Positions 564-21,992 of a DNA stretch of 64,000 bases are shown piece by piece. The position numbers were made by a program, and so were the translations under genes. Every line of letters starts with the position of its first letter. Positions within the stretch are counted from its first letter, which is position 1. A model generated the notes under the pieces. It had not been told where the DNA came from, searched no databases, and saw only the letters and a list, made by a program, of their open reading frames with translations. Source of the DNA: Octopus vulgaris (taxonomy: Eukaryota); assembly GCA_951406725.2 (NCBI GenBank), contig OX597819.1:29264001-29328000 (forward strand), given 5' to 3'.

Positions 564-845
564 TATGCATGAAACAAGTAAACAATCAACGATTATGTTA
601 TTTAGAGATAGAAGTCCCCATGCAATTCATCAAATCCTAATAGACATCACACCATATCATAGAATTTTATTTTAATATTTACTATTTCAGTTCCAAATTT
701 CTTTTCTACACGTGTTTCATGAGGTGCATTTAACATTCCCTAGACACTCAGTCTTTTTCAGAAACATGTCTTAACTACAACCCCAATCATCAGGACTCTT
801 CATAACTTTTTTTATAATTCAAAATATAAGTAATACAGACAGTAA

Positions 846-3472: not shown

Positions 3473-3875
3473 TTACTCTTTTACTTGTTTCATTCATTTG
3501 ACTGCGGCCATGCTGGAGTACCACTTTTTAGTCGAGTAAATCGACCCCAGGACTTATTCTTTGTAAGCATAGTACTTATTCTATCAGTGTCTTTTGCTGA
3601 ACTGCTAAGTTATGGGGGCGTAAACACACCACCATCGGTTGTCAAGCAATGGTGGAGGGACAAACACAGACACACAAACATATACACACATACATATATA
3701 TATATACATATATACGATGGGCTTCTTCCAGTTTCCGTCTACAAAATCCACTCACAAGGCTTTGGTCAGCCTGAGGCTATAGTAGAAGACACTTGCCCAA
3801 GGTGCTACACAGTGGGAATGAACCCGGAACCATGTGGTTGGTAAGCAAGCTACTTATCACACAGCCACTCTTGCT
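3473..3875 (-). mobile_element. SINE family A, near full length
   Basis: Tail cttttacttgtttca..catttgactgcggccatgctggag through head ...ccatgtggttggtaagcaagctacttatcacacagccactc. Confidence 0.9.
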
Positions 3876-4351
3876 TGTTAATATATATATATATATATTT
3901 ATTTATTTTTGTCTCTCCCACCTAACTTCATTTTCCTCCCTCTCTCTAACCCTCTTTCTTGTCTCTCTTCTCTCCTCATTCTTTTGTCTTTATTATTAAT
4001 ATCTTTAATGTTTTATTATTGCCTATTATTTTTATTATTCTTTTACTTCTTTCAGTCACTGATGGGTTTTAGTCAAACAGATCAACCCCAGGACCTATTT
4101 CATGAGCCTAGTACTCATTCTATTGGTCTCTTTTGCTGAACCACTATGGTACAGGGATGTAAACACACCAACAACAGTAGTCAAGCAATGATTGGGGACA
4201 CACACACACAAACATAAAGACACACACACACATAGATACATATACATATATATATATAAATATGCATATATGTATATATATATGTATATGTATGTATATA
4301 TATGTATGTATGTATATGTATGCATGTATGTATATGTATGTATAAGTACGT

Positions 4352-4407
<56 letters not shown>

Positions 4408-4430
4408 AGAAGCAACAAGAATGGATAGGT

Positions 4431-4519
4431 TTTTAGTACAATCGTTTCATACAAGGACAGGCTTTATAAAAGTTGCAAAATTACAGCATATAAACGTGTC
4501 CTGTACTCATCAGCTAAAA
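4431..4519 (-). ncRNA. Type I minimal hammerhead ribozyme (inverted copy)
   Basis: Reverse complement of 4561-4651: ttttagtacaatcgtttc...ctgtactcatcagctaaaa. Confidence 0.78.
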
Positions 4520-4560
4520 TACATGTGAGTTCTCTAGACATCCGAGAGAACTCACATGTA

Positions 4561-4651
4561 TTTTAGCTGATGAGTACAGGACACGTTTATATGCTGTAAT
4601 TTTTGCAACTTTTAATAAAGCCTGTCCTTGTATGAAACGATTGTACTAAAA
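4561..4651 (+). ncRNA. Type I minimal hammerhead ribozyme
   Basis: Stem I ttttag(4561-66)/ctaaaa(4646-51); core CTGATGA 4567-73; stem II gtacaggaca.../...tgtcc(t)tgtat; GAAA 4634-37; stem III AC-gatt-GT; cleavage triplet GTA 4643-45. Confidence 0.8.
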
Positions 4652-4796
4652 CCTATCCATTCTTGTTGCTTCTTTCTCGCTTATAATCACCCCACATTAT
4701 TGTATTGTTAAAACAGTATAGTTTTTTTGGTGCATCTAAGTTAGGTACCATATTCAAGTAAATTCATTTAAATTAACTTGAATCTTTATTGCTTTT

Positions 4797-4849
<53 letters not shown>

Positions 4850-5039
4850 AGCTTCTTTCAGTTTCTGTCAACCAAATCAATCCACTCATAAGGCTTTAGT
4901 TGGCCTGCAGATTATAGGAGAGAACACTTGCTGAAGGTGCCACACGGTGGGACTGAACTCAGAAACGTGTGGTTGGGAAGCAAGCTTCTTACCACACAGC
5001 CACGCCAGTGCCTATTGTTAATATCATTATAATTACTAG

Positions 5040-21648: not shown

Positions 21649-21890
21649 CTATTCCTGAAAGAAGCAATAATTATTGACTAAATCTAACAATTAGTAGTCT
21701 AGAGGTGACCCAAATTTACATGCAAAAACATATCTGAAATTTCTCTGTTAATCTCCAAAATTCACGAAGAGATTTCATTTCTACCTATGAACAATATTCA
21801 AATTACATCTTTCCCTTTCTGAGATTATGAACAGCTAGGGCTTAACCAGTTTCTTCACTATTCCAGAGAAGCTGAATATTTCTTCCTGTT

Positions 21891-21992
21891 ACATTTATTT
21901 TACTTATATTTCATTTCTGTCATCAGTTTCTCTATTTCATCATTTATTTTACTTATATTTCATTTCTGTCATCAGTTTCTCTATTTCATCAT
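21891..21992. repeat. Perfect tandem duplication of about 49 bp
   Basis: catttattttacttatatttcatttctgtcatcagtttctctatttcat occurs twice. Confidence 0.85.

Follow-up and report, generated by a model that had tools for sequence, protein, structure and literature searches.

How does a near-perfect hairpin bearing hammerhead ribozyme motifs on both strands come to lie inside a (TA)n tract of the octopus genome, and does it act there? The initial annotation of this stretch of Octopus vulgaris DNA (64,000 nucleotides in all, hereafter the window) described a young, non-autonomous, self-cleaving retroelement derived from a Penelope-like element (PLE), the two arms of which might form a co-transcriptional folding switch. 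Sequence comparison shows the insertion at 4404-4798 to consist of two head-to-head copies of one 3' tip, which comes from an autonomous Penelope-like retrotransposon bearing Hydra-clade motifs. The locus itself is ordinary, being one among several hundred remnants of its family. What is new here is the family and a constraint on the pairing of its ends. Opposite-strand hammerhead pairs are already published: they lie 100-700 bp apart in truncated PLEs (Cervera and De la Pena 2014, PMC4209133), and the Hydra table of PMC8557442 gives Penelope-13_HM a hammerhead on each strand.

A hairpin inside a split repeat

Folding and comparison with other copies confirm that a near-perfect hairpin sits within the (TA)n of an interrupted repeat. 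The arms (4404-4535 and 4545-4677, 132 and 133 nt) form a hairpin spanning 4404-4677 that is disturbed only by three one-base indels, all within homopolymer runs; its folding energy is -242 kcal/mol (z = -35), and none of 100 shuffles folded equally well. An unpaired tail of 118 nt (4681-4798) trails the right arm, up to the right (TA)n. An intact copy of the host repeat lies at 3526-3868, and its two halves correspond to the sequences on either side of the insertion, 4067-4252 and 4810-5003; from its tRNA-like head we take this repeat to be a probable SINE. No host gene is evident in the ORF list of the 64-kb window. The features of the locus are as follows.

4067..5003, minus strand: older SINE-like host repeat, interrupted at its internal microsatellite
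4376..4403: (TA)n target, left flank
4404..4543, minus strand: inverted copy of the element 3' end, 5'-truncated, stopping at the short (S) site
4431..4519, minus strand: second copy of the same hammerhead motif (motif 4513-4437 within)
4536..4544: head-to-head junction (loop), of which 8 nt are extra 5' sequence of the left arm; a natural TCTAGA palindrome adjoins
4545..4680, plus strand: direct copy of the element 3' end, 5'-truncated, up to the S site
4561..4651, plus strand: minimal type I hammerhead, with a predicted cut after A4645 (from core pattern and folding)
4681..4798, plus strand: 118-nt tail, its terminus being the long (L) end site; in tandem copies the ORF leader follows immediately
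4799..4845: (TA)n target, right flank

The parent family

A search of the species' own genome (2.8 Gb) returned 1,682 candidates, the best among the 40 that were scored showing 95-100% identity. Exact matches to a hammerhead 15-mer, a 17-mer just 3' of the hammerhead and a tail 18-mer occur 1,035, 1,125 and 621 times in the genome, and the reversed-pattern controls gave 0-1 matches. Relatives of the family are also found in Argonauta. Walking upstream from the 3' tip, we reached a unit of 4,663 nt, and 8 of 20 near-full-length loci retain a single frame, 941-984 codons long, in which the four marker motifs are all present; together with the high identity of the best copies, these open frames support the youth claimed in the initial annotation.

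The family protein, 949 aa counted from the first Met, has a predicted fold with a mean pLDDT of 78, and the six best structural matches of the model are telomerase reverse transcriptases (RTs). Comparison of the ORF sequence with Pfam, NCBIfam and PDB gave nothing useful; a GIY-YIG-like motif was read directly in it, and RWK, DKT, YRDD, CxCX5C, CxxC and CxH are present in the protein (P0002) and in 66-71 of 71 aligned relatives. Full-length relatives thus supply the link to an RT plus GIY-YIG ORF, and with it support for a Penelope-like origin. The single ORF joining telomerase-like RT and GIY-YIG, typical of Penelope-like (EN+) elements, is found in family members and not in the window copy; the family also shows further EN+ traits, namely a tandem pLTR, an inverted 5'-truncated copy and a tail at one end.

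Within the PLEs, the family shares with the Hydra clade, as described by Craig et al. 2021 (PMC8557442), a C-terminal GIY-YIG endonuclease with RWK, DKT, a CxCX5C linker, CxxC and CxH, as well as a hammerhead near the 3' end, (TA)n targets and inverted 5'-truncated copies, and its protein follows the published Hydra alignment when compared by eye. It departs from the clade in several respects: the unit is 4.66 kb, whereas Hydra elements are 'generally < 3 kb'; the tail is 118 nt, against the usual 30-40; and there are two Asn-rich inserts, a long 3' UTR and a 60-nt stem II arm. Hydra-1_Obim, from Octopus bimaculoides (PMC8557442), differs from the present family in both protein and hammerhead, again by eye. 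The Asn-rich inserts are disordered (ORF at L076:1290-4220) and resemble those of rotifer Penelope elements (PMC3846280). Nested in one family member (L044:4441-5397 region) is a fragment, 319 codons long, from the endonuclease region of a more distant PLE.

That the window copy is the 3' tip of an autonomous element follows from this ORF and from tandem copies, in which the tail runs directly into the ORF leader. As arm length varies continuously between copies, from about 40 nt to full length, the insertion is best seen as one truncated copy of the autonomous element, and a separate non-autonomous family finds no support. Two other element classes were rejected. A Foldback/MITE DNA transposon does not accord with an unpaired tail at one end only and widely varying arm lengths. 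Non-LTR retrozymes (bioRxiv 10.64898/2026.07.22.740005) do carry a type I hammerhead related to that of PLE pLTRs, as here, but consist of head-to-tail tandem units, whereas 4404-4798 is head to head and belongs to a coding family.

Two opposed hammerhead motifs

Both hammerhead motifs, in opposite orientation, are upheld by core pattern and folding. The plus-strand motif comprises stem I (4561-4566/4646-4651), CTGATGA (4567-4573), stem II (4574-4633), GAAA (4634-4637) and a stem III (4637-4644) made of an 8-nt self-complementary sequence; the CUGANGA, GAAA and NUH core with paired stems I and II supports a minimal type I hammerhead. Like the minimal hammerheads of metazoan PLEs (PMC4209133), it combines type I topology with a long helix II and a palindromic helix III/loop 3, though its stem II arm is much longer than in those hammerheads, and the base of stem II is G-U, in contrast to G-C in them and in a sister family described below.

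The motif is kept across genomic copies: 14 distinct variants were picked from the family, from its older subfamilies and from one sister family, and of their 238 cells 99.2% pair, against 35-58% for slid partners. Stem covariation, proposed as a check in the initial annotation, is borne out in part. Two-sided changes occur at three pairs, two in stem I and one in the stem III palindrome, but both stem I changes depend on the single sister-family row, and 5 of 500 shuffles equal three two-sided pairs, a type of count that relatedness inflates. Two different perfect stem III palindromes occur among relatives, and the palindrome is broken in one copy. The other check, Rfam, gave no hammerhead family at gathering score over the whole window, and none even at E <= 10 in a local search, where the only matches were generic miRNA hairpins below cut-off; the long stem II arm is a likely cause of this miss.

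In the folded monomer stem III barely forms (pair probability 0.02-0.03), while as a self-duplex it forms 8 bp at -5.8 kcal/mol. Minimal hammerheads of the dimer type cleaved weakly and only as dimers (PMC4209133). The present motif is likewise predicted to act in the RNA of the full element, and there only as a dimer or when assisted by protein.

Folding and cleavage at the locus

The first reading of the locus, as a non-autonomous ribozyme element with a hairpin acting as a co-transcriptional switch, could appeal to the conserved and covarying motif and to some ten further loci with arms of similarly short length. These short copies differ, however, in their junctions and subfamily variants and hence represent separate truncation events, and a tandem unit as in retrozymes is absent. 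The switch itself fails in the folding model. With a head-to-head layout the antisense arm is transcribed before the ribozyme strand in both directions; in each of the transcript prefixes folded, the antisense arm captured the ribozyme strand, and in the folded hairpin the hammerhead pairs have probability 0. Read-through RNA at 4404-4798 is instead predicted to be an inert hairpin, and we consider this first reading as a whole very improbable.

Truncation fossils of cleavage in vivo were also considered and rejected. Junctions near the predicted cut site are found in 12 tiny two-armed insertions (L172-L183), but the longer arm passes that site by at least 3 nt, and 6 of the 12 have a common junction at a natural micro-hairpin beside it. 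Patterns for arms that start at the cut site have 1 and 4 matches genome-wide, representing at most 3 truncations, against about 1,100 arms. The lack of a pile-up at the cut site agrees with the use of uncleaved RNA as template by a PLE protein in vitro (PMC11167929). Contigs from four runs, guessed to be RNA, match 21-30 of 30 bins of a full-length copy, which shows neither transcription nor cleavage.

Paired ends and shared variants

Arms of the family terminate at one of two sites, short (after 4680) or long (4798), and the two are combined in a strict manner. On contig C1 we sampled all 44 sites with the hammerhead 15-mer and 6 from the other two patterns. Each of the 31 resolved two-armed copies among these 50 loci (one copy being degraded) has one short end and one end with the 118-nt tail (p ~ 5e-10 under independent ends); of the other loci, 17 are single-armed, one has a second arm that lacks an end site and one is interrupted. 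When the fetched loci are taken together, the pairing holds in 79 of 79 insertions, of which about 29 came from a tail-containing query and so are informative for the other arm only. Duplicates are excluded from this set, as are the sister family, 11 loci of older subfamilies and four awkward loci (L045, L085, L089 and L145); L089 and L145 are also short-plus-long. At 47 of 93 short ends a G adjoins the (TA)n where the element has T, which suggests a recurring misaligned first nucleotide at priming.

The same pattern recurs in a sister family (L084:255-872, L113-L132, L196-L215), a second young Hydra-type family with 1,085 candidates and an RT 81% identical. Its arms end at the same two sites, its tail is about 120 nt long and its hammerhead pairs fully; L207 contains a long open frame. 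Among 31 independent loci, chosen by having a short end, 20 of the 21 two-armed copies are short-plus-tailed. The lone exception has two short ends; its inverted repeat runs on into the host flank, so that it looks like a later DNA duplication. In two independent cases among 20 loci an arm consists of tail alone and breaks off at the short site. A fixed composite non-autonomous form of this family was rejected: L084 and L112, on two contigs, share a segment of at least 6.2 kb at 98.9% identity, holding a full-length element and a sister-family copy, and represent one duplicated segment.

The arms of one insertion are also unusually alike. On C1 the divergence between them is 0.24% of sites, compared with 1.8% from one insertion to another, and at polymorphic sites they agree in 305 of 309 comparisons, where about 100 disagreements would be expected. 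Across the 79 insertions, 31 private variants are found in both arms and 33 in one. Of the 23 private alleles that C1 insertions carry in both arms, 17 are absent from 80 other loci and 6 recur elsewhere; 4 of 19 one-arm private alleles recur, and mutation spectra do not separate the two classes. Variants in both arms could result from inheritance from a template, from one arm being copied off the other or from later conversion.

How the insertion may have formed

The origin of PLE inverted repeats and of their one-sided tails has been named an open question (PMC8557442). Starting from the observations above, namely a family with its ORF, two fixed end sites, the pairing of one short with one tailed end, and shared variants, we regard it as probable that the insertion arose from nicks on both (TA)n strands and a single RNA primed twice. 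The element protein would nick both strands of the tract, and each target strand would then prime one round of reverse transcription on a shared RNA molecule, one strand at the short site and the other at the long site, 118 nt further 3'. The cDNAs would reach about 140 and 255 nt before stopping; their 3' ends would be joined, often via a few complementary bases, and each joined cDNA would then be copied into duplex. The two hammerheads would be a by-product, because both arms include the end region. In LINE-1 twin priming, too, two target ends prime on one RNA, giving a 5' inversion; L1 inversions, however, span non-overlapping parts of the RNA, whereas in the present family one stretch is copied into both arms, starting from two fixed sites.

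Besides the strict pairing in both families and the agreement between arms, two further observations support twin priming. First, the short-ended arm reaches further 5' in 26 of the 79 insertions (the tailed arm does so in 31, the two start within 5 nt of each other in 19, and 3 extend past the part compared), which is impossible by self-copying of one cDNA; simple fold-back of a cDNA primed on the target would never place the tail on the shorter arm, yet it lies there in a third of cases. Second, the Penelope-like protein of Poseidon PAc, from Anolis, starts reverse transcription in vitro at two RNA sites that match the tail ends, as proposed here, with AT-rich targets and uncleaved RNA as template, and is predicted to be a dimer (Frangieh et al. 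2024, PMC11167929). The available part of that report makes no statement that each insertion uses each site once; in the present family the two sites are 118 nt apart, and this unusually long tail makes them easy to tell apart. Several observations are less readily accommodated: about 18 of the 50 C1 loci carry a single terminal arm, only 14 of 28 C1 junctions have an overlap of at least 2 nt (12 have extra bases), one sister-family locus has two short ends, and the shared variants could come from gene conversion or arm-off-arm copying. We nonetheless lean towards the general proposition that Penelope-like elements integrate by fixed two-site twin priming on a single RNA, with each strand using its own site once.

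One alternative starts from a self-primed, fold-back hairpin: the endonuclease would cut one of its strands at the short site and the other at the long site, and these ends would then be joined to target DNA. Self-priming and endonuclease resolution have been proposed earlier (PMC3846280; PMC8557442), and this route would account for the pairing rule and the shared private variants, as well as for the 19 insertions with nearly coincident arm starts and for several junctions that are palindromes. It needs, however, a first cDNA that starts beyond the long site, unattached to the target, whereas in vitro both sites are RT starts on nicked target DNA (PMC11167929). Junction variants of a priming type occur at both ends, an example being the non-template G at short ends, and we judge this route unlikely.

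Less probable still is a protein dimer that holds two RNAs from the same locus, with one start site per subunit and later conversion keeping the arms alike. This would yield the same end pairing, and gene conversion within palindromes is well known. The anole protein is, moreover, predicted to be a dimer (PMC11167929). Two RNAs nevertheless require a built-in asymmetry that one RNA supplies for free, arms that start at the same base (the same 19 insertions) better fit one broken RNA, and the tail-only arms of the sister family that stop at the short site also speak against it.

Neither the strict pairing nor the one-RNA reading was found in the literature searched, which was mostly open-access (older papers by Evgen'ev, Arkhipova and Pyatkov lie outside it). 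The family matters modestly, in being young, retaining open ORFs and having an unusually long tail. Strict end pairing and shared variants narrow the range of mechanisms, and clear predictions follow from them for the in vitro system already available; if twin priming is correct, hundreds of young two-armed copies with a 118-nt tail would constitute a genomic record of its rule.

Other hammerhead-like sequences

A loose core pattern has four matches in the window, against 0.22 expected. Besides the two motifs of the hairpin, an unrelated core at 707-793 (minus strand) combines a stem III that is a perfect palindrome with a long stem II arm; its stem I is poor, and it is probably a decayed PLE remnant. 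The fourth match (21844-21926, minus strand), in which convincing stems are absent, is probably due to chance. Hammerhead-like motifs of unrelated sequence also occur in the DNA flanking six of the fetched loci (L038, L051, L082, L088, L098 and L106), which suggests that the genome contains many further PLE families.
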